The notes below the pieces were generated by a model that had not been told where the DNA came from, made no database searches, and saw nothing but the letters and a program-made list of their open reading frames with translations. A DNA stretch of 64,000 nt, from positions 96,001 through 160,000 of the forward strand of contig JBMFRB010000002.1 in NCBI GenBank assembly GCA_049968255.1. Reading direction: 5' to 3'. Origin of the DNA: Candidatus Sumerlaeaceae bacterium. GTDB taxonomy: Bacteria > Sumerlaeota > Sumerlaeia > Sumerlaeales > Sumerlaeaceae. The position numbers and the translations under genes were made by a program. This document shows, piece by piece, positions 7,351 through 16,805 of this stretch (positions are counted from its first letter, which is position 1; each line of letters begins with the position of its first letter).

Positions 7351-8638
7351 TGCGATGCTGTGACATTTCCTTTATCCTGGGCCCGAGTGCGTTTGCAATT
7401 GTTTCTCCCAGCAGACGAGAGAACTGCGGTGAGTAGTGGACCATGTCCAAGTAAACAGGATCCGGTGCCGTGGTTTGAAGATCTGCAGCCCACAGAAAAT
7501 TCTGCCCCAGCTTGCCTTCCTCGTACAATTGTCTCATTTTCGGATAGCCAAAGGCTGAGAACATCTTTTTGCAGTCCTTTGGAAATAGATGCCGGCGAAG
7601 ATCAAAATGATAAGATGGAACGGGCTGCCAGACAAAAAGTGTTGAGAAGCGGAATTGCTCGCCGGCGCCTTCTATCATTCTCTTGTTGGCTAAGTAGGTC
7701 GAAATAACTTTGCCGATCACTTCGGGACGATTGAAATAGGCCACGTCCGCTTGCGTGAGAGCGTTTGGATCATCGCCGTCGGCCACGGCAAATCCGTGTT
7801 CTTTTTTTCCCATCAATTGTAATAAGCGAATGAGAGGGAGCTGTTTCGCTGCGGCAGCCCATGGCGACGGGGGAGGCTTTTCGGCCACAATAATGTCCAA
7901 CATTTCTGAAAGTTGAGATGAGTACTTCGGCACGTTATCAATATAAAAAAACTCATTGAGTCCGTCTATAAACACAGCCACATCCGGCACATATCCCTCG
8001 CTGAGAAGGAATTGTAAGTAAGCACGTTCCTGCGAAGAATAGAAAGAGTTTGTTCCGAAGTTATAAACGACAATACGTTGAGTTGGAAACGTACGCCGAA
8101 GTGAGTCTTGAATCGCAGAAGGAACGGTTTGCCAGTCCGCTACACCGTAGCCAAAGGTCGTTGACCCACCAAAGATAAAAATATTAATGTTTTTGCGAGA
8201 AGGTGGCCAAGGTTCTTGGTCTTTGCTGTAACGGAATCCCCATTCGTCGATATTCACATATTGGCCCCTGTAAGGACGCTCGCGGAACAACGTGAAGGGA
8301 TGAAAAGCAACCGGACGACCCCATGTTTCCGTCAGCAATTTGTCCACTTCATTTCGTGGCATGTTTTCGTAGACTAGCCGAAATGCTTTTTCCGCTGCTT
8401 CTGGGCCATAGCGATCAACGATCGGATTCCATGAAACATAGGGACGCGTTGGCCGTGTGATCAGCACCACCCACGCTAAAATATTGAGCACGATGGCAGC
8501 GATGAGAAGATTGAAACAGAAAAGCGAGACACGTGCGTACTTCCTTGCGAAGCTCTGAACCGAGCTGCGCAAATGTTCGTCAGGAGAAAAGGCCGTCCCC
8601 TTGGGCGGTAGGGTATGCGTGTTTTGCTCTTTTTCCAT
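7322..8638 (-). CDS. membrane-anchored SGNH/GDSL hydrolase-like protein
   Basis: N-terminal TM helix; FGGSTTFG (block I), DGLNE (block III), DMVH (DxxH). Start chosen at ATG 8638. Confidence 0.8.
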   Translation of the reverse strand: MEKEQNTHTLPPKGTAFSPDEHLRSSVQSFARKYARVSLFCFNLLIAAIVLNILAWVVLITRPTRPYVSWNPIVDRYGPEAAEKAFRLVYENMPRNEVDKLLTETWGRPVAFHPFTLFRERPYRGQYVNIDEWGFRYSKDQEPWPPSRKNINIFIFGGSTTFGYGVADWQTVPSAIQDSLRRTFPTQRIVVYNFGTNSFYSSQERAYLQFLLSEGYVPDVAVFIDGLNEFFYIDNVPKYSSQLSEMLDIIVAEKPPPSPWAAAAKQLPLIRLLQLMGKKEHGFAVADGDDPNALTQADVAYFNRPEVIGKVISTYLANKRMIEGAGEQFRFSTLFVWQPVPSYHFDLRRHLFPKDCKKMFSAFGYPKMRQLYEEGKLGQNFLWAADLQTTAPDPVYLDMVHYSPQFSRLLGETIANALGPRIKEMSQHRITHESASPQ

Positions 8639-8715
8639 TGCCGTAAAGCGGTTCTCTTTCGCTAGCGTACTAAGGTAGTGCAAACAACGGAAGACTATTG
8701 AGCAAGAAAAGACCA

Positions 8716-9138
8716 ATGATCAAACGTGTACCATTGTTTGCTCGAATGATTGCTCGAACAATGGCCATGCTGGGCGCTGCCGTTTTTGTGTGCACGGCGC
8801 AGGACGGTCTTTATGCGCAGTACACACCTGACATTGAGTTGTGGTTGGGAGAACGGATAGGTCGCTTTGGCGACTTTGAGTTTTCGATTCTCGGCGGGCG
8901 TCCCGATTATCCCACGCCTACGGGGGCGTTCGTGGTTGAGTGGAAGTCCCGTTCCTGGTGGTCGAAGCAGTGGAATGCACCCATGCCTTATTCCGTCTTC
9001 TTTCGTAACGGGGCCGCAATCCACGAAGGCAGTCTCTCAGTCCCTAGTCACGGATGCATCCATGTCAACCAGAAGGCTGCTCGTTATATCTTTGAAAACT
9101 CGCGCGAAGGGGTCACGCGTGTTTTTGTCTACCCATAG
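8716..9138 (+). CDS. L,D-transpeptidase (YkuD domain), minimal, exported
   Basis: PTPTGAF, MPYSVFF, AIHEG and SHGCIHV catalytic motif. Start uncertain (8698-8761). Confidence 0.88.
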   Translation: MIKRVPLFARMIARTMAMLGAAVFVCTAQDGLYAQYTPDIELWLGERIGRFGDFEFSILGGRPDYPTPTGAFVVEWKSRSWWSKQWNAPMPYSVFFRNGAAIHEGSLSVPSHGCIHVNQKAARYIFENSREGVTRVFVYP

Positions 9139-9246
9139 TGAAATGGCTTTTGGGAACCGCAGTCTCCGGTTTCCCAGAATGCAAAAACGCCTCTGCATAA
9201 AATCGTTTGCCCCCGATAATTCTTGCACACTGAAATCTTCCCTGTG

Positions 9247-12200
9247 ATGGCGCGCGCAGAATTTGCATTTCTTCACGTTCACAGCTGGTACTCGACCAGG
9301 ACCGGCGTGCCAAGTATTTCCGAGCTTGCCGAGCGGGCGGCCCATCTCGGCTATCGCGCTCTTGCACTCACGGATTATTGCTCGCTTGCGGGGGTACCGG
9401 AATTTGTCCAGCAGTGCCGCACACGTAATGTGAAGCCCTTAGTAGGGGCGGAGGTTCCGCTGACGTTGCCCCTAGCCGGCGGATTTGTCACTGACCGCTT
9501 TGTTTTCCTGGCAGAGGATGATACGGGGTACTTGAATCTCTCGCGTTTCCTCACAGAGGTCTTTTCCAAGACAACGGTTAGTGTTCCTGCCGGTCTCGCC
9601 CATGGTTTGTCGATTCCCCTCCAAATGCTCCACTCCTTTGCGTCGGGGCTCATCGTCATTACGGGCGGCACAGCCGCCAAGCTCACCGAGTTCATTGTGA
9701 GTGCAAGTTGGGAATTCACGCACCAATATTTGAACAGCCTGTTCGAGCTCTTCGATCGCGAGCAGATTTGCCTTGCTGTGGATCATCCGAACATCGCGCT
9801 TCCCCTCAAACACTTCGCGCGCCGGCATGGTTTGACCGCCGTCGCAGCTCCGGCCATCTACTACCTCTCTCCCGCTGATTCCCTGGCTTATGTTTTTCTG
9901 TCTGGCCAGCCGTGCCCTGCGATTTTCCTCCCAAACGCACGCGCGTCTGATTCGCCGCTCCACCATCTAGCGCGCCACGAGGAGGTCCAAAGTTTTTTCC
10001 ATAGCGACTACGAGCTACTGGGGGCAACTCTTCGAATTGTGGAGCGCTGCCACGCTCTGCAGAGTGCGTTCCGCCCTAGGTTCCCGACGCTCGACGTGCC
10101 ACGCACCGCGCCCGATGCTTACCTTTACGATGTGGTGTCTCGCGAGGCGGAGAGACTCTTCAAGGAGATCAAACCGGAAATACGTACTCGCCTGGATGCG
10201 GAATTAGCGGCGGTGCAGCGGGAAGGATTGGCTGACCGGTTCATTCTTCTGCACTCGCTCATTCGCTACTGCCGCGATCATGGAGTGACCATCGGAGTTG
10301 GCGGGGGCGATTTGGTCACGAGCCTGGTTGCCTACGTATTGGGCCTCACCCAGGTCAATGCTCACGATTTCAAACTCAACTTTTGTGGATTTGGCAATGT
10401 GCGCGCTGCCGGAACAACCGAGACCTTTGCGCTCGAAATTCCCGTAGAGGCTGCTCCCGTCGTCGAAAAGTTTCTCGAGGAATTTATTGGAGAAGGTCAT
10501 TGTGCTCGCGTGGGACGCTATAGCGTCACAAGTCGAAGCGCACTCATCCGCGCCCTCAGCGAGTGGATGGGGCTGGACCAACGTAGTGCTGCGTCCACGG
10601 AGTTAGTGGAACGCGATGGCCTCCGTCATTTTCATAGTTTCGTCAAACATTCGACGGACTCCGTAGCGCTTCCTAGTCCGCAGGTTCTCGCCTTTCTACT
10701 CAGTCGCCTCCTTGGTCGTCCCGAAGAGCTCTCCTTTTCTGAGACGGACATGGCCATCTCGAGCGAGCGTCTGGAATATCTTGTTCCCCTTGCACGCATC
10801 GGGGGTAGCCTTTGCACGCAAGTGGGCGCCGCTGGCCTCGATGTCATGCGGATTCCCCGCCTTATTCTTTCCACTTCGCCGCAGCTCAGAATCCTGAATT
10901 CTGCGGCGGCCTGGATTCGCGAGGAGCAGAACCTCGATGTGGCGAAAGCTCCGCTCGACGATCCCAGAACGTACGAGCTTTTGCGCCGCGGGCTTACCCT
11001 CGGAATCGAGCCCTTTCAATCTATGCGCATGCGGATGCTTCTTCGTCACCAAGCGCCACGAAATTTTCGCGAGCTGCTCAAGGTCCGCTCCGAAGATGCT
11101 CTAGCCACTGGCGACGCTCGCGACATCCGACATTTCCTCCCGGAATGTCTTCTCGGCTATCGTCTCGCCTATGTGAAGGCGCATTTCCCCGCTTGCTTTT
11201 TTGCAGCTGCTTTTTCTCGCATGGCCGAAAGTAAGCAAACAAAGAGACTCGCAGCGTTTTTCCGCGAAGCACGGGAAATGGGGGTGAAAATCCTGGGGCC
11301 GGACATCAACCGCAGCTCTTACCAGTTCACTATCGAGCGCGGTGCCGTGCGCTGTGGTCTTTCCATGATAAAAGCAGTGGGGGAGAAGACCTATCACGAG
11401 ATCGACCAAGCAAGGTCTCGGGGCGAGTTTGAAGATCTCTTGGATCTGCGGCGTCGTACTGAGCGGCGCATCGTCAACAGTGCCGTGCTGGCAAATCTCA
11501 TTCGGGCCGGCGCTTTGGACTGCTTTGAGGAGGACCGCAACGCGCTTCTTGCCAGGCTTGAAACTCTAGATGATGAAGCCGCTGAGCATGCAGGAACACT
11601 TTTCGACGAGGTGGCCGAGGCCCTTGGGGCAGGCACCGCTCCTTCTTCGGCGCGCGAAATATTGCAACAAGAGATCGAGGCCACGGACGTGCCTATTTCT
11701 GTGGATCCCATCTCGCTGTTCTCACTCACGATGAGACGCGCGAGCGCAGCACGCTTCGGTTCGCTTAGTCGCCGCGATGTGGGGCGAGATGTGTCTGTCG
11801 TAGGGTTTCTCAACCATATCGACGAGCAGCCCACCAAGGAAGGTGGCGTTGATGTCTATTGCGCGGATTTTGACGGCTACCCGCTGCATATTCCTGCCAA
11901 AGTCCGACAGGCCTATGAGCGCAATCTTTCAGCGGAAGAACCCCTGTACGTCTGCGGTGTGGCTCACCAAACAACCGATGGCGCCATTGCTGTTCGGGCG
12001 CACGCTATTTTCACACTGAGCGAGGTCGAAGAACTGAGTGGCGCGGTCAGATCGATCTCGTTGGATTTAGGCGGCGAAAATTTACATACGCTGCGTCTCC
12101 TGGGGCATTTGATTCGCCGCTACAAAAAAGGCACAACTCGTCTCGATGTTCTCTCGATTCCGACAGGTTTTGCCACGCGCCTCCTCGCATGGAGAATCCA

Positions 12201-12384
12201 TCGCTCGCGCGTCTTTTTCTGCCCGGGACTTTATTATCAGCTGCGAAAAATTCTAACAGAAAATCAAATCGAGCTCGTATTCACTGATGAAACGACCGAA
12301 CACTATGCTATGAGCTTGCTTGCCCCGTTCCAATACGCAAAAAGTTCGTCCTCGGAAACGCTTCCAGCAATTGAGCTATATTGA
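9247..12384 (+). CDS. DNA polymerase III alpha (DnaE)-like protein with degenerate catalytic motifs
   Basis: PHP start LHVHSWYS and ALTD; RLDAEL; SLVAYVLGLT; AYVKAHFP; GPDINRS; HhH GLSMIKAVG; LIRAGALD; OB-fold. The RGS, PDIDID, KFDFLG, YQEQ and FNKSH motifs are absent (see findings). Confidence 0.85.
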   Translation: MARAEFAFLHVHSWYSTRTGVPSISELAERAAHLGYRALALTDYCSLAGVPEFVQQCRTRNVKPLVGAEVPLTLPLAGGFVTDRFVFLAEDDTGYLNLSRFLTEVFSKTTVSVPAGLAHGLSIPLQMLHSFASGLIVITGGTAAKLTEFIVSASWEFTHQYLNSLFELFDREQICLAVDHPNIALPLKHFARRHGLTAVAAPAIYYLSPADSLAYVFLSGQPCPAIFLPNARASDSPLHHLARHEEVQSFFHSDYELLGATLRIVERCHALQSAFRPRFPTLDVPRTAPDAYLYDVVSREAERLFKEIKPEIRTRLDAELAAVQREGLADRFILLHSLIRYCRDHGVTIGVGGGDLVTSLVAYVLGLTQVNAHDFKLNFCGFGNVRAAGTTETFALEIPVEAAPVVEKFLEEFIGEGHCARVGRYSVTSRSALIRALSEWMGLDQRSAASTELVERDGLRHFHSFVKHSTDSVALPSPQVLAFLLSRLLGRPEELSFSETDMAISSERLEYLVPLARIGGSLCTQVGAAGLDVMRIPRLILSTSPQLRILNSAAAWIREEQNLDVAKAPLDDPRTYELLRRGLTLGIEPFQSMRMRMLLRHQAPRNFRELLKVRSEDALATGDARDIRHFLPECLLGYRLAYVKAHFPACFFAAAFSRMAESKQTKRLAAFFREAREMGVKILGPDINRSSYQFTIERGAVRCGLSMIKAVGEKTYHEIDQARSRGEFEDLLDLRRRTERRIVNSAVLANLIRAGALDCFEEDRNALLARLETLDDEAAEHAGTLFDEVAEALGAGTAPSSAREILQQEIEATDVPISVDPISLFSLTMRRASAARFGSLSRRDVGRDVSVVGFLNHIDEQPTKEGGVDVYCADFDGYPLHIPAKVRQAYERNLSAEEPLYVCGVAHQTTDGAIAVRAHAIFTLSEVEELSGAVRSISLDLGGENLHTLRLLGHLIRRYKKGTTRLDVLSIPTGFATRLLAWRIHRSRVFFCPGLYYQLRKILTENQIELVFTDETTEHYAMSLLAPFQYAKSSSSETLPAIELY

Positions 12385-12421
12385 CAAAATGATAGCATGA
12401 GACAAGAAAGGAAGGAGCAGC

Positions 12422-13063
12422 ATGAAGAAACGTATCGTCCTGTTCACCGCAGCGCTCACTGCGGGCGCAGCCCTCGTGGCCAATGCCAAACCTTACGCAG
12501 TATTTCACACTTCGAAAGGCGAGTTTGTCGTAGAGTTGTTCCCCGACAAAGCTCCCAAAACTGTAGAAAACTTTGTTGGTCTTGCAACAGGGAAAAAGGA
12601 GTGGCAGCACCCAGCTACCAAGGAGGTCATGAAAGGTAAGCCTCTCTACGATGGCACTGTTTTCCATCGCACCATTGAAGGTTTTATGATTCAGGGGGGT
12701 GATCCTCTTGGCAACGGCACCGGTGGACCCGGTTACACCTTCGAGGATGAGTTTAGTGATTTGGCGTTTGATCAGCCGGGCTACCTCGCCATGGCGAATC
12801 GCGGACCCAACACCAATGGCAGCCAATTTTTTATCACAGTCGCGCCGACCCCTCACCTCAATCACCGCCATACGATCTTTGGCAAAGTCGTGAAAGGTAT
12901 GGACGTCGTGATCGCGATTTCTCAACTACCGAGCGAGCCACGTACCGGCCGCGCACTTAGCCCAGTAAAGCTCGAACGGCTCGAAATCCGTGACACTCTC
13001 GAGGCTCCGTCGCCGCAGCCAAAGCAAGAAGAGAAAACCACCACCGGCACGGACAAGAAGTGA
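12422..13063 (+). CDS. cyclophilin-type peptidyl-prolyl cis-trans isomerase with signal peptide
   Basis: [48 protein letters not shown]; AAGGAG RBS. Confidence 0.95.
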
Positions 13064-13163
13064 ATCATCATTTTTGAATTCCTGTACTTTTGTCGCAGAG
13101 GAGAGGGCTGCCTGGATTATAGGGTCGCCCTGCCTTCAAGATTGGGTTGAAAGGATTACAAAA

Positions 13164-13391
13164 ATGCCGGTTTACGAGTACAAGTGTTCTGAATGTGGAG
13201 AAGAGTTCAGTGCACTCGTGTTCTCGCAGAGCGAGATCGATTCGCTCGAGTGTCCCAAATGTCACAGCAAGAAGTTCGAGAAATTGATGAGTGCGAGCGC
13301 GGTAGGCGTATCCCCGAGCTCGACGAGCACACCGAGCTGTTCAACGAGTTCCGGCCCATCCTGCCCGTTCGGTTCATGTGGATGTAGCTGA
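13164..13391 (+). CDS. FmdB-family zinc-ribbon regulatory protein
   Basis: MPVYEYKCSECG...CPKC...KLMS and a Cys-rich tail; AAGGA RBS. Confidence 0.9.
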   Translation: MPVYEYKCSECGEEFSALVFSQSEIDSLECPKCHSKKFEKLMSASAVGVSPSSTSTPSCSTSSGPSCPFGSCGCS

Positions 13392-13618
13392 GAGACCGGA
13401 AAGGATTTTCCATGATTCCTAAAGGACGAACCAAAGATCCTCGTCCCGAAAAGATGCCCGTCATCACTTGTGGCATTGAAATGTCGCGCGGGCAGAAGAG
13501 CAAGTCCCCGGAAAAGCTCACGGGCGGCAATCAGCCCGCCGATGAATCGCAGGCGGCCAAGCTCGTGTGTGAGTACCTGAGAACGTCCCAGTAACGCGCC
13601 ACCGATACGGGCTTCCAC

Positions 13619-15247
13619 TCATTGCGGGACGTAGAACATCAAGCGGGTGTTCAACGTCCTAAGCGCGGATTGTCGCAGCGGTCGATAATTTCTTTCGATC
13701 GCTGCTTTTATTTCTCGAATCCGCCCCGTTTGATCCAAATCCAGTGTCACGAATGCGATTTTCTTTGCCTCGAGAGCCGAGGCAATTTGCTCCACAGCCG
13801 TCACTCCGCGGCCATGAATCTGATCCTGCTTCTCGTTATAGTACTTGAGCGTCCACAAGAAGATCTCGCTATAGTCGGCGACAATCCGCCTTCGGGCAAG
13901 GAAGGCATAAAAAGGCGGGGAGAGCACCTCATTGTCGGGCGCGCTATGCTGCTGCATAAGCTCCACGACCTGCCGCGTGCGATATTCGTCGAGTTCGAAT
14001 GTCTCTTGTCGTAGCGTCCGGGCAATGAAACCCAAGCCAGGCGCAAAGACAACGAGCGCTAGCCCTGCCGCTCCCGTGAGATAGGCAAGAGGAATCGTAT
14101 TACGGAGCAGCGAGCTTTTCCTCAGAGCGCGATAGCCTTCTCCCAGGTCAGCAACGACCAATGCCGCCAGGACTGCCACGATAGGCTCCCCAATCGTGAA
14201 GATGTAGTCCATCGTTCCGCCCTTGGCGACATACACGACGGACGCCATAAGGGTGAGAGCCGCCCAACTGAACAATTCCAGCTGTGGCGCGCGCTGAGCC
14301 GCCCGGAGCAATCGCAGCAAACCAACCAGCGCGAGCACAATAAGTCCACCTTCAAGGGTCAAGATGTCACGTCCTTCGCTCGTGATTTTCCCCCATGCGT
14401 AAGTCAGCAAGTTTTGGCCCGGCGGCAGGAATTCTCGGCGCGGGAATGATCCCACTTGATTGAAAATGACATTCTCAAGATATGCACCAGTTTTCAGTTC
14501 GAGGAGCAGCGTTACGCTAACGCACGGCACGCACAGACCGATGAGGAAAGGCAGGCACAGCCGGCGCTCCCTTGCGAAGAGGTAAAGCACAAACAAACAT
14601 GCATAGGGCGCAGCCGTCATGTTTGTCAGGCAAGCCAAAGCTGCAAAGACGCCTGCACCTACGGCCGCGGCTGGCCTACGGTCTTTCAAAAGCACAAATA
14701 GTGCGCCATAAAGAAAAAGAATCTCCAGCGGCTCGCTTTGATACCCCAACGACCACCAAAAACCAATGGGAGCGAGCAGGTAAAAGATTCCAGCTAAAGC
14801 TCCGATGGTGTGGCATGTTTTTTCGTTCCCACCTATCAGCGCCACGCGTTGCGCAAACGAGGCCACAAGCAAGGCCATACTTGCGTGGAGCAACACGCTG
14901 AACCCACGAAATACGTAAAGCATCGGCAACCCCGCGAGCGAGGCCAGTTTCGCCAAAACCCAACCCACAAAAAAATGCATAGGCGGTTGTGGCGCCAAAA
15001 CATCGCGATAAAGGGTAGCTCCTTCGCTAAGCCGCCAACAGATGTAGAGGTAGTTTCCATCGCCGAAATCAATGTAAGCCTGACTCCAATGGCTAATAAC
15101 CGTAGCGGCGTAGATCAGCACCGCCACGCCAAGCACGAGCGAGGTCCAACGCTTTCCCTGGCAGGCCGACACAAAATCTCTCGCAGGCTTGGGCGACTGC
15201 CCAGAAGTTGGCGCATCGCTGAGTTGGCTTTCTTCGAGAGGCTTCAT
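13619..15247 (-). CDS. GT-C fold polytopic membrane glycosyltransferase (ArnT/PMT_2-like)
   Basis: Many TM helices; first loop DFGDGNY...GATLYRDVLAPQPP; SEP motif; soluble C-terminal domain; start overlaps the upstream stop (TGATG). Confidence 0.75.
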   Translation of the reverse strand: MKPLEESQLSDAPTSGQSPKPARDFVSACQGKRWTSLVLGVAVLIYAATVISHWSQAYIDFGDGNYLYICWRLSEGATLYRDVLAPQPPMHFFVGWVLAKLASLAGLPMLYVFRGFSVLLHASMALLVASFAQRVALIGGNEKTCHTIGALAGIFYLLAPIGFWWSLGYQSEPLEILFLYGALFVLLKDRRPAAAVGAGVFAALACLTNMTAAPYACLFVLYLFARERRLCLPFLIGLCVPCVSVTLLLELKTGAYLENVIFNQVGSFPRREFLPPGQNLLTYAWGKITSEGRDILTLEGGLIVLALVGLLRLLRAAQRAPQLELFSWAALTLMASVVYVAKGGTMDYIFTIGEPIVAVLAALVVADLGEGYRALRKSSLLRNTIPLAYLTGAAGLALVVFAPGLGFIARTLRQETFELDEYRTRQVVELMQQHSAPDNEVLSPPFYAFLARRRIVADYSEIFLWTLKYYNEKQDQIHGRGVTAVEQIASALEAKKIAFVTLDLDQTGRIREIKAAIERNYRPLRQSALRTLNTRLMFYVPQ

Positions 15248-16725
15248 CAGCCAGTGGTCACCATCCGAAGCTCAAATTCCTCACACAGTCGAGCCGCCGT
15301 CACAAATTCAGCCGTGCCCGCCGAGGCAAACAAGAAGTATTCCATCGTGTCCCAATAGCCGGGAAACGCACGGTGGTCATGCAGTGTGTTATGCCACAGC
15401 AGCACAAACGCACCGCCACGCGTTTCACTTGCATCCAGCAGCCGTGCAAACCGCTCGATGGCTTTCTCAGCCGGCAATTTTTCGTAAACAGCCAACGTGA
15501 TGTCCATCGCCACAAGCGGTAGTTCAATGATAGGCAGTTCCATGCGTTTTTCTACGTCGAACGGTCGCAAACATCCCGACCATCCGCAGCGAAAGCCTGC
15601 CCTGTCGGCAAATCCCACGGATGTGTCGTAGCGCAATCCACACTGTCCCTGGATGTACCATGTGTCTGGTACGGAGAAACGCAAATAATGCTGGCGCGCG
15701 CCGATCACGCTGTGGCCGACAGCTTTCTCCAGCGCTTGCGTTTCAGCCTGCATCTGCTTGAGTGATTGGAACGTCTCATAAGAGGGATGAAGGCCGATTT
15801 CATCGCCGTGCGACAAGATTCGCATGATGAGCTCGCGAACCATCTGATCATCGAGTGAATAATCGCCGTCGAGAGGCGCTTCACCTCCGCCCATCAGATA
15901 GAAACTCGAAGGTGCGCTCAAGCGTTCCTTCACAGAAAAGATGTCATCGAAGCTGTCATAAGGATCGCGCCGCAGGCCAGCCAAAACAAGGCTAGCCATA
16001 CGAATCTCGCTCGTGGCCTCGCGGGCATCTCCCCTCATCATTGCGGAAATTGTGCGCCTCACTCCCATGAGGCCGCGATATTTCCTGAGTAGGTCCACGT
16101 CGTGGGTGAGCACAACCCGTGGTTTTTTGCAAAAATAGGCCGAATTGCGGTGCCGGCTCAGGTCTTCAATCACGCGTTCAAGCTGCTCGAACCACCGATT
16201 CACCACGGGCTGGTCATACATTTCTGGCGGAGCTACGCTGAAGGCGGCCAAAAACCTGTTGTGAGCTTCGGCTGTGGCGGTCACATATTCCTCGTAGCGT
16301 GACAAAAACCAGAATGCGGCCGCCACAAGATCAAAATTTATATGCGCTCGTTTGATCGACACCCTCTCCACGTATTTCACAAAACCATCGGCGGACGTTG
16401 CTTCCTGCAGCAGATTGGTAGGCTCGGGCATGTCTGGAGTGAGAAGAAATGACGGCCCAAAAAAGGAAGAGCGTCGGATGCGGATTACTGGTTTACCGCG
16501 AAAACGGTTTTCCACTACGGTCCAGTATTCTGCAGTCTCGTCGTCCGTGCCGTACAGCACAAGAACGTCGGTTTCACGAAGAGGGGGCTTCTGCGCGAGT
16601 TCCTCCCATGAACAGAACCTCGTCGCCATACCTGCCCACCGACCAAATGTGCGAATCACGTAATCCACACACGGCGCAAATTCATCGTTTGCGCGCACAC
16701 AAAGGCACACTGCATCGTTCATCAT
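15247..16725 (-). CDS. polysaccharide deacetylase (CE4-like) with N-terminal extension
   Basis: FDLVAAAFWFLSRYEEY, LTHDVD, EIGLHPSY, RQHYLR, YDTSVGF, LLWHN. Confidence 0.85.
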   Translation of the reverse strand: MMNDAVCLCVRANDEFAPCVDYVIRTFGRWAGMATRFCSWEELAQKPPLRETDVLVLYGTDDETAEYWTVVENRFRGKPVIRIRRSSFFGPSFLLTPDMPEPTNLLQEATSADGFVKYVERVSIKRAHINFDLVAAAFWFLSRYEEYVTATAEAHNRFLAAFSVAPPEMYDQPVVNRWFEQLERVIEDLSRHRNSAYFCKKPRVVLTHDVDLLRKYRGLMGVRRTISAMMRGDAREATSEIRMASLVLAGLRRDPYDSFDDIFSVKERLSAPSSFYLMGGGEAPLDGDYSLDDQMVRELIMRILSHGDEIGLHPSYETFQSLKQMQAETQALEKAVGHSVIGARQHYLRFSVPDTWYIQGQCGLRYDTSVGFADRAGFRCGWSGCLRPFDVEKRMELPIIELPLVAMDITLAVYEKLPAEKAIERFARLLDASETRGGAFVLLWHNTLHDHRAFPGYWDTMEYFLFASAGTAEFVTAARLCEEFELRMVTTG

Positions 16726-16805
16726 GATGCCTCTTTGCTGTTGGTCCGGGAATGTGAAATCAAGTTTTAGGAACACAGCTCGAGATAATACTGGCCATTG
16801 GCGCT

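Follow-up and report, generated by a model that had tools for sequence, protein, structure and literature searches.

The C family of bacterial DNA polymerases has been surveyed as the groups DnaE1, DnaE2, DnaE3, and PolC (PMC12926913, PMC3919608). Inactive polymerase homologs are discussed in the same two papers for the Y, X, A, and B families, as are inactive PHP domains. ImuB is described as a catalytically inactive component that binds the clamp, and bacterial PolX proteins with an inactivated polymerase site are reported to keep an active PHP exonuclease (PMC12926913). Neither paper, in its survey text, presents a C-family group whose polymerase site is dead (PMC12926913, PMC3919608); their supplementary sequence lists may hold one, and strongly diverged sequences were discarded before tree building in the former. 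A full-text literature search returned no inactive C-family polymerase and no paper pairing "Sumerlaeota" with "DNA polymerase III." Here, we describe a gene in 64,000 nucleotides (nt) of DNA from a Candidatus Sumerlaeaceae bacterium (assembly GCA_049968255.1, contig JBMFRB010000002.1, positions 96,001 to 160,000), the whole of which we refer to as the window. We conclude that its product, which we call iDnaE, is very probably a conserved and functional paralog of DnaE1 that is dead as a polymerase.

Active site, fingers, and domain layout

The iDnaE gene (9247..12384, + strand, as are all of its parts given below) consists of 1045 codons plus the stop, as read from the open reading frame (ORF) list and the translation. 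The frame is open throughout, from the ATG at 9247 to the stop at 12384, with no internal stop codon. This ATG is the likely start, with an in-frame TTG at 9223 as the alternative. A database protein of 1045 amino acids (aa), P0002, is identical to the iDnaE of the window.

We compared iDnaE with seven reference polymerases, namely, the DnaE1 of the same genome, its DnaE2-like protein, and five others. All seven carry D, D, and D at the three catalytic columns, which we take to be D401, D403, and D555 in E. coli numbering. The iDnaE protein has T, A, and I there. The first two lie where TETFALEI (10417..10440; ETFALEI from residue 392, nt 10420) replaces (M)PDIDIDF, and the third lies where PRLILST (10855..10875; RLILST from residue 538, nt 10858) replaces LKMDFLG. 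The Glu of ETFALEI falls at the column of the third Asp in PDIDIDF. At residue 350, GVGGGD replaces GPGRGS (10294..10311). An initial annotation of this DNA had listed motif substitutions in the gene, and computed positions and several alignments recovered every one of them where it had been placed.

The fingers have been lost in large part. The stretch that carries RPGP, YQEQ, RRAMGKK, and GFNKSH is gone from its place after RNFREL at residue 605 (nt 11059) and before YRLAYVKAHFP at residue 638 (nt 11158). The span from RPGP to GFNKSH measures 16 residues in iDnaE versus 118 to 129 in the seven references, a deletion of about 100 residues. The initial annotation had noted that a segment with YQEQ and GFNKSH is absent at this place, and its absence is borne out both by this span and by one large gap in the hhalign profile alignment. 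In an alignment with DNA polymerase III (PolIII) alpha of Taq, residues 611 and 626 of iDnaE correspond to Taq residues 692 and 815; together with the hhalign gap, this puts the deletion junction at about residues 610 to 637 (11074-11157). The fingers remnant (residues 546 to 660, 10882..11226) gives only a partial match to Pfam DNA_pol3_finger, which scores 34.3 bits against a cut-off of 22 and covers profile positions 2 to 70 of 166.

Both losses extend across the family. We assembled an ortholog set of 37 genes, the iDnaE gene of the window and 36 extracted from relatives. At the three catalytic columns, acidic residues are wholly absent from 23 of these orthologs and a single one is present in 13; one ortholog (in genome G027, with R, E, and E) has two, and none has three. 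Asp occurs at any of these columns in just 2 of the 37, with one Asp each. The fingers span is 9 to 29 residues long in all 37. Among 56 family representatives, which come from protein-level homologs and from the top block of matches when 1.84 billion representative proteins were searched by profile, the counts are similar: 29 have no acidic residue at the catalytic columns, 26 have one, and one has two. A member from the second class of the phylum, P0153 (the copy in genome G041), has L, E, and K at the catalytic columns and also has the fingers deletion. Therefore, the catalytic and fingers losses are older than the divergence of the two classes. An acidic residue, mostly Glu, does occur at the column of the motif's third Asp in 29 of the 37 orthologs, but we read it as noncatalytic because its position shifts between neighboring columns from one alignment to another. 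In the palm region (residues 281 to 545), D288 and E319 are the only acidic residues with a conservation of 90% or more across the family; neither is at a catalytic column, and E319 is common to the iDnaE family and DnaE1. The proposal from which we started, that this is a catalytically dead DnaE paralog, is supported by the lack of any ortholog with three acidic residues and by the fingers deletion in every ortholog.

The rest of the DnaE1 architecture has been kept. The PHP domain (residues 1 to 280, 9247..10086), in which the metal site is eroded, matches Pfam PHP with an E value of 2e-22 and 80.7 bits (cut-off, 26.4). The palm and thumb (residues 281 to 545, 10087..10881), where the fold is kept and the active site is lost, match Pfam DNA_pol3_alpha with 59.8 bits (cut-off, 23.9). 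Then follow a tandem helix-hairpin-helix (HhH) domain (11281..11547), which matches HHH_6 over its full profile length (E = 4.9e-26, also above the Pfam cut-off), and the pentapeptide AGTLF (residues 782 to 786, 11590..11604), which aligns with the internal QxxLF motif of DnaE1. An OB-fold domain (residues 801 to 930, 11647..12036) was recognized from model strands, Foldseek, and alignment to the OB domain of DnaE1. A C-terminal domain of the DnaE1 kind (residues 931 to 1030, 12037..12336) was recognized from hhalign and a high predicted local distance difference test (pLDDT) score. All NCBIfam models for DnaE, DnaE2, and PolC match iDnaE, each far below its own cut-off. The best of them is the DnaE1 equivalog NF004226, with 305.7 bits against a cut-off of 1002; TIGR00594 gives 288.6 bits against 434.35.

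We modeled iDnaE with AlphaFold2 from 36 family sequences and obtained a mean pLDDT of 87.2 and a predicted template modeling score (pTM) of 0.82. The top Foldseek matches of the model are the PolIII alpha structures 2hpi, 4iqj, 3e0d, 7pu7, and 5fku, with E values of 1e-55 to 1e-47 (9.7e-55 for 2hpi) and a template modeling (TM) score of 0.64 for 3e0d and 7pu7. The palm strands at residues 393 to 397 and 538 to 542 are present. The OB strands are at residues 848 to 923, and their local Foldseek matches are the OB domains of Asp- and Lys-tRNA synthetases. In hhalign, the family profile aligns over positions 1 to 1016 with positions 1 to 1171 of the DnaE1 profile (probability, 100; E = 2e-151), an alignment that reaches the last DnaE1 residue and has its single large gap in the fingers. 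From this end-to-end profile alignment and the fold matches, the layout of iDnaE is therefore that of DnaE1, C-terminal domain included. Thus, an intact frame of about 1045 codons that keeps the HhH, the OB fold, the C-terminal domain, and AGTLF, as first read from the translation, is confirmed by Pfam, Foldseek, and the profile alignment.

The metal site of the PHP domain has also decayed, as had been noticed from two of its motifs. TDY replaces TDH at residue 42, and AAPAIYY replaces ATNDxHY at residue 200 (NDxH to PAIY). Measured against the nine-ligand pattern HHDHEH[C/H]DH (PMC12926913), iDnaE keeps three of the nine ligands (H, H, and E), and the site has been lost throughout its genus. 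The 37 orthologs vary widely: one, that of genome G040, has all nine ligands, four have eight, five have seven, and 27 have six or fewer, five of these having none. The site was probably intact in the ancestor of the family and later decayed many times. Since the site has decayed in most lineages while the gene has stayed intact, PHP chemistry cannot be the conserved function.

Selection, distribution, and descent of the family

We compared the gene among the three genomes of its genus. Synonymous sites are saturated, and we therefore compared the proportion of nonsynonymous differences (pN) with that of synonymous differences (pS) instead of using dN/dS. For iDnaE, pN is 0.23 to 0.38 and the saturated pS is 0.79 to 0.83 (0.79 to 0.85 over all comparisons); for DnaE1 in the same genomes, pN is 0.11 to 0.16. 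That pN lies far below a saturated pS demonstrates that iDnaE is under purifying selection. A check of dN/dS had been proposed at the outset, and neutral drift was not seen.

The constraint is unevenly spread over the protein. For each domain, we took the ratio of the mean pairwise identity in iDnaE to that in DnaE1 over the same 13 genomes. This ratio is 0.47 for the palm and thumb, 0.53 for the clamp-motif loop, 0.60 for the PHP domain, and 0.61 for the fingers remnant, and it rises to 0.76 for the OB domain, 0.79 for the HhH domain, and 1.15 for the C-terminal domain. Thus, the palm and thumb are the least constrained parts, and the HhH, OB, and C-terminal domains are the most constrained. 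The same is seen at columns that are invariant in the 13 DnaE1 proteins of the phylum: iDnaE keeps 8 of 68 in the palm and thumb (a column being counted as kept if present in at least 10 of the 13 iDnaE proteins) and 9 of 14 in the HhH domain. The role suggested in the initial annotation, that of a scaffold, DNA-binding factor, or replisome modulator, fits this pattern of constraint; the role itself is predicted from sequence.

The AGTLF loop is predicted to be disordered, with a pLDDT below 50 over residues 780 to 795. Its motif aligns with QGSLF of the genome's own DnaE1. Across the 37 orthologs, the Phe is present in 36, [LFMI]F in 34, and a Gln at position 1 in 10. An anchor residue that persists while the disordered loop around it varies typically marks a short linear binding motif, which we predict this to be. 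We also predicted a complex of the genome's DnaN (19-sequence alignment) with residues 760 to 812 of iDnaE (36 sequences). It gave a score of 0.01 against a mark of 0.32, which, for a 53-residue piece run without controls, speaks neither for nor against binding. The C-terminal domain of E. coli DnaE1 binds the tau subunit of the clamp loader. The model for domain V of tau (PF12170) has no match in the genome of the window, a result that is uninformative because the model matches only E. coli among 14 control genomes.

Next to selection, the distribution of the gene bears on whether it is functional. When the 40 nearest genomes were searched with the iDnaE protein, an open full-length ortholog was extracted from 36, at 24 to 64% identity. 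In the other four, the copy is cut by the contig end (G016), is in fragments (G023, 82% complete, and G039, 81% complete), or is represented by a best match of just E = 3.7e-6 (G009, 66% complete). A family profile at E ≤ 1e-170 found one match each in 67 of 75 genomes of the phylum, including 41 of the 43 of high quality. The match spans the whole profile in 60 of the 67, and one is in a genome of the second class. Six of the 67 matches were scored as having an internal stop. Four of these genes, when extracted, are open from start to stop, so the stops scored for them fall outside the genes; the remaining two are in G042 and G073. Four of the eight genomes without a match were reinspected, and in two of them, G051 and G060, the iDnaE gene lies in pieces at contig ends. 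Thus, orthologs, the distribution of which was to be checked, are far from absent.

The gene appears to be confined to this phylum. In the profile search of representative proteins, the top block consists of full-length and mostly single-stretch matches, and it is followed by ordinary DnaE1 proteins, each of which matches in two stretches on either side of the fingers gap. All named homologs are from Candidatus Sumerlaeaceae or Candidatus Sumerlaeota. A locus search with the most divergent representative, P0153, returned one record, from an uncultured Candidatus Sumerlaeota bacterium.

We then placed the family in a tree of 57 sequences (LG+G4), which is prone to long-branch effects, so that a deep position in it should not be read as an ancient origin. 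The iDnaE family forms one clade on a long stem, with a Shimodaira-Hasegawa-like approximate likelihood ratio test (SH-aLRT) support of 100. It lies outside the DnaE1 clade of the phylum (13 rows; support, 100) and outside the DnaE2-like and error-prone clade, which joins the DnaE2-like proteins of the phylum with two proteins named error-prone polymerase. A tree that unites iDnaE with the DnaE1 of the phylum, a grouping named after the first tree had been seen, is not rejected (log-likelihood lower by 29.5; approximately unbiased [AU] test P = 0.21). Within the family, the iDnaE tree is broadly congruent with that of DnaE1. We read iDnaE as a vertically inherited, single-copy gene across the phylum. 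We infer, as the simplest history, that DnaE1 was duplicated in the ancestor of the phylum and that one copy then lost catalysis and changed faster; this history is suggested by the DnaE1-type layout with its C-terminal domain, by the restriction to one phylum, and by the single copy per genome.

Genomic setting

The assembly of the window comprises 3.1 Mb in 31 contigs and is 95.75% complete. It contains three C-family genes, those for DnaE1 (contig C4), a DnaE2-like protein (contig C1), and iDnaE. A canonical dnaE, which the initial annotation had advised looking for elsewhere in the genome, is thus present: the DnaE1 of contig C4 has every motif and all nine PHP ligands. The RNase_T/DnaQ family (PF00929) has no match in this 95.75%-complete genome, and proofreading is probably carried out by the PHP domain of DnaE1.

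The DnaE2-like protein keeps D, D, and D, in agreement with the earlier remark that DnaE2/ImuC retains its aspartates. Encoded at C1:138112-142221 (locus L002), this protein is unusually long, about 1260 aa from the likely start, and large insertions of low complexity interrupt it within the PHP region and again where palm and fingers join. The sole Y-family (IMS) match of the genome lies directly upstream of this gene on contig C1. Therefore, the statement that no imuA or imuB genes adjoin the iDnaE gene holds, the only IMS match being on another contig. In its translation, the Y-family protein has DxD and LDD at what are presumably the places of the acidic motifs of active Y-family enzymes, and the Y-family protein of this cassette may therefore be a working polymerase and not an ImuB. 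In another genome of the set (G007:C132:10165-16320, locus L008), a DnaE2-like gene (+, ending near 12825) and the dead paralog (−, 13198-16320) lie tail to tail, an arrangement found in G007 only.

A palindrome of the GAAC-N4-GTTC type, TAGAACAnnTGTTCTA, occurs 30 nt upstream of lexA (contig C3) and 79 nt upstream of the Y-family gene (contig C1), and it is likely to be the LexA box of this lineage. No exact copy of it lies within 300 nt upstream of recA. The whole window contains three matches with at most two mismatches, which is at the level of chance (33 of 100 shuffles reach three).

The surroundings of the iDnaE gene are of a housekeeping and envelope kind: two M16 peptidases, a GT4 glycosyltransferase, a GDSL-like gene on the other strand, a YkuD-like ORF, and a cyclophilin. 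The YkuD-like ORF (8698-9138, +, 146 codons) lies upstream of iDnaE and matches the YkuD L,D-transpeptidase catalytic domain with an E value of 1.4e-10; ORFs of 133 to 142 aa occupy the same relative place in 3 of 12 related loci. The gene for a cyclophilin-type peptidyl-prolyl isomerase (12422..13063, +; Pfam Pro_isomerase, E = 4.6e-47) begins 37 nt downstream of iDnaE. A cyclophilin gene follows iDnaE at a distance of 2 to 78 nt in all five loci examined from the window's own taxonomic family and in none of the seven loci examined from other families. Thus, the cyclophilin may share an operon with iDnaE, but in a single taxonomic family. The order iDnaE, cyclophilin, a 542-aa gene (−), and a DUF7033 gene (−), of which the three genes after iDnaE lie within 12422-16776, is kept in all five family loci; the 542-aa protein has no Pfam match. 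A scan of 8500 to 13700 for promoters and terminators gave counts at the level of shuffled sequence, and the PADLOC defense families gave no match. Among the sequencing runs searched, one DNA run contained a fraction of 0.31 of the sampled words, and another from the same study contained next to none.

Function, alternatives, and known systems

Our overall reading, in which we have moderate confidence, is that iDnaE is a C-family pseudo-polymerase, a noncatalytic alpha-like subunit that binds DNA and probably the clamp or the clamp loader. Presumably unable to synthesize DNA, it would act through its binding modules, a mechanism that we propose because selection concentrates on the HhH, OB, and C-terminal domains and on the Phe of the clamp-type motif. 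The HhH domain would hold duplex DNA and the OB fold single-stranded DNA, and the C-terminal domain and the LF motif would dock the protein on the clamp loader and/or the sliding clamp. Placed in this way on a primer-template, iDnaE would occupy, or compete for, the place of a polymerase within either the replisome or a complex for repair, and it could serve as a scaffold, as a placeholder, or as a competitor for polymerase sites. We give this docking on DNA, clamp, and tau an even chance of being correct. The chemistry of replication does not need iDnaE, given that DnaE1 is intact in the same genome and that the DnaE2-like protein retains D, D, and D. A more specific version, in which iDnaE is a standing noncatalytic alpha-like subunit of the replisome, with its C-terminal domain on the clamp loader, its LF motif on the clamp, and its HhH and OB domains on DNA, and in which the ancestral protein may have been a PHP proofreader in trans before that site decayed in most lineages, is rather doubtful.

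Several observations weigh against this reading. The binding of DNA and of partners by iDnaE is so far predicted, and the clamp-type motif is degenerate in the protein of the window, where AGTLF lacks the Gln that is found in just 10 of the 37 orthologs. In the G027 lineage, two catalytic columns out of the three hold Glu. The iDnaE protein evolves 2 to 3 times faster than DnaE1 (dN, 0.27 to 0.53 versus 0.12 to 0.18). The copy in G048, a genome that is 95% complete, is split into adjacent open frames of 454 and 511 aa, and G074 (second class, 87% complete) shows just a DnaE1-like gene; the iDnaE gene may therefore be dispensable in some lineages. In G048 (G048:C14:36882-39721), about 50 profile positions are missing between the two frames, so that the gene may be genuinely split, may have become a pseudogene, or may have been assembled wrongly. 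No SOS-box-like site was found in the 530 nt upstream of the iDnaE gene, and none with up to two mismatches lies near it. No replication or repair neighbor is conserved across the phylum (12 loci, with none conserved in the 7 from other families), and the only conserved neighbor, the cyclophilin, is confined to one family. The sequencing-run search listed no RNA run with the gene.

The faster evolution and the two-frame copy of G048 are what would be expected of a decaying pseudogene, or of a recent dnaE duplicate that drifts neutrally and is still open by chance. However, open full-length frames persist in 36 of 40 relatives at 24 to 64% identity, and matches are present in 67 of 75 genomes, 60 of them full length. 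With a pN well below pS, HhH, OB, and C-terminal domains conserved to near DnaE1 levels, and a tree broadly congruent with that of DnaE1, we regard decay as the least credible explanation. It is nearly as hard to believe that iDnaE is an active polymerase or nucleotidyl-transferase that uses noncanonical carboxylates, such as the Glu at the third-Asp position. The model does retain the beta strands of the palm, an acidic residue occupies the third-Asp column in 29 of 37 orthologs, and 13 of the 37 have one acidic residue at a catalytic column, with Glu at two in G027. Yet no ortholog has three such residues, and 23 of the 37, including that of the window, have none at all. The fingers motifs YQEQ, RRAMGKK, and GFNKSH are deleted in all 37, GPGRGS is degenerate, only 8 of the 68 invariant DnaE1 palm and thumb columns are kept, and the two conserved acidic residues, D288 and E319, are off the catalytic columns.

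A different kind of chemistry would be retained if the PHP domain were the working part and iDnaE were a polymerase-dead, clamp-tethered 3'-5' exonuclease or phosphoesterase that proofreads or processes ends in trans. PolX offers a precedent for a PHP nuclease of this sort (PMC12926913). The PHP site was probably functional in the ancestor of the paralog family, ten orthologs still have a complete (G040) or nearly complete (eight or seven of nine) set of ligands, and the genome has no RNase_T/DnaQ match. The gene is, however, intact in the window with three of nine ligands and in the 27 of 37 orthologs with at most six, and the DnaE1 of the genome, with nine of nine, can itself supply proofreading; we therefore judge this function improbable. 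Finally, iDnaE might use its fold alone in a role outside replication and repair, as a nucleoid or structural DNA-binding protein or as a client or partner of the cyclophilin. The housekeeping and envelope neighbors, the cyclophilin that follows in five of five family loci, the lack of a link to replication genes, and the lack of an SOS-box-like site upstream would all suit such a role. On the other side, the cyclophilin link is found in none of the seven loci of other families, and the strongest relative constraint falls on the parts that contact DNA and the replisome in DnaE1, namely, the HhH, OB, and C-terminal domains and the clamp-motif Phe. We consider a role of this kind unlikely, and we retain the pseudo-polymerase reading.

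Inactive polymerase modules are known in eukaryotic Pol epsilon and in some archaeal B-family paralogs. If iDnaE were a standing subunit of the replisome, it would be the bacterial counterpart of these modules and the first C-family pseudo-polymerase. The retention of a polymerase-dead alpha in nearly every genome of a phylum shows that the scaffold of the bacterial replicase can become a pseudoenzyme. iDnaE is also a natural separation-of-function variant, in which selection has retained the DNA-binding, clamp-motif, and C-terminal modules after catalysis was lost. With it, the roles of alpha apart from catalysis, namely, docking on the clamp and on tau, the switching of polymerases, and the occupancy of sites, become open to direct testing. 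There is also a warning for annotation. In this phylum, the name "DNA polymerase III subunit alpha," which three family members bear, covers a protein that, judging from its motifs, is unable to polymerize.

Of the known systems, iDnaE is closest in architecture to DnaE1, with which it shares domain order and fold (PHP, palm/thumb/fingers, HhH, clamp-motif loop, OB, and C-terminal domain), as compared with the structures from Thermus aquaticus (2hpi, 3e0d, and 4iqj), M. tuberculosis (7pu7), and E. coli (5fku). Unlike DnaE1, it is without the catalytic triad, about 100 residues of the fingers, GPGRGS, and an intact PHP site, and it falls below the equivalog cut-offs. It resembles DnaE2/ImuC in being a nonessential second or third C-family paralog beside DnaE1 with an inactive PHP site. 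However, DnaE2/ImuC keeps the catalytic Asp residues, which iDnaE does not. DnaE2 is reported to be without a C-terminal domain (PMC3919608), whereas iDnaE has one. The DnaE2-like gene of the genome stands behind a Y-family gene with a LexA-box-like palindrome, while iDnaE has neither, and iDnaE falls outside the DnaE2 clade in the LG+G4 tree.

The remaining parallels are with dead polymerases of other families. Like PolX with an inactivated polymerase site, iDnaE is a polymerase-dead protein with a PHP domain, and a few of its orthologs keep eight or nine of the nine ligands; PolX, however, belongs to the X family, and in the iDnaE of the window and most of its orthologs the PHP site is eroded too. 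ImuB belongs to the Y family and has its fold, whereas iDnaE is a C-family protein with no IMS match and no imuA/dnaE2 cassette, and its binding to the clamp is predicted only. The comparison with ImuB made in the initial annotation is thus an analogy and not a kinship. As an analogy it stands, since both proteins have kept a polymerase fold and a clamp-type motif (a degenerate one in the iDnaE of the window), have lost their catalytic residues, and are conserved: they share the logic of a dead polymerase that is kept.

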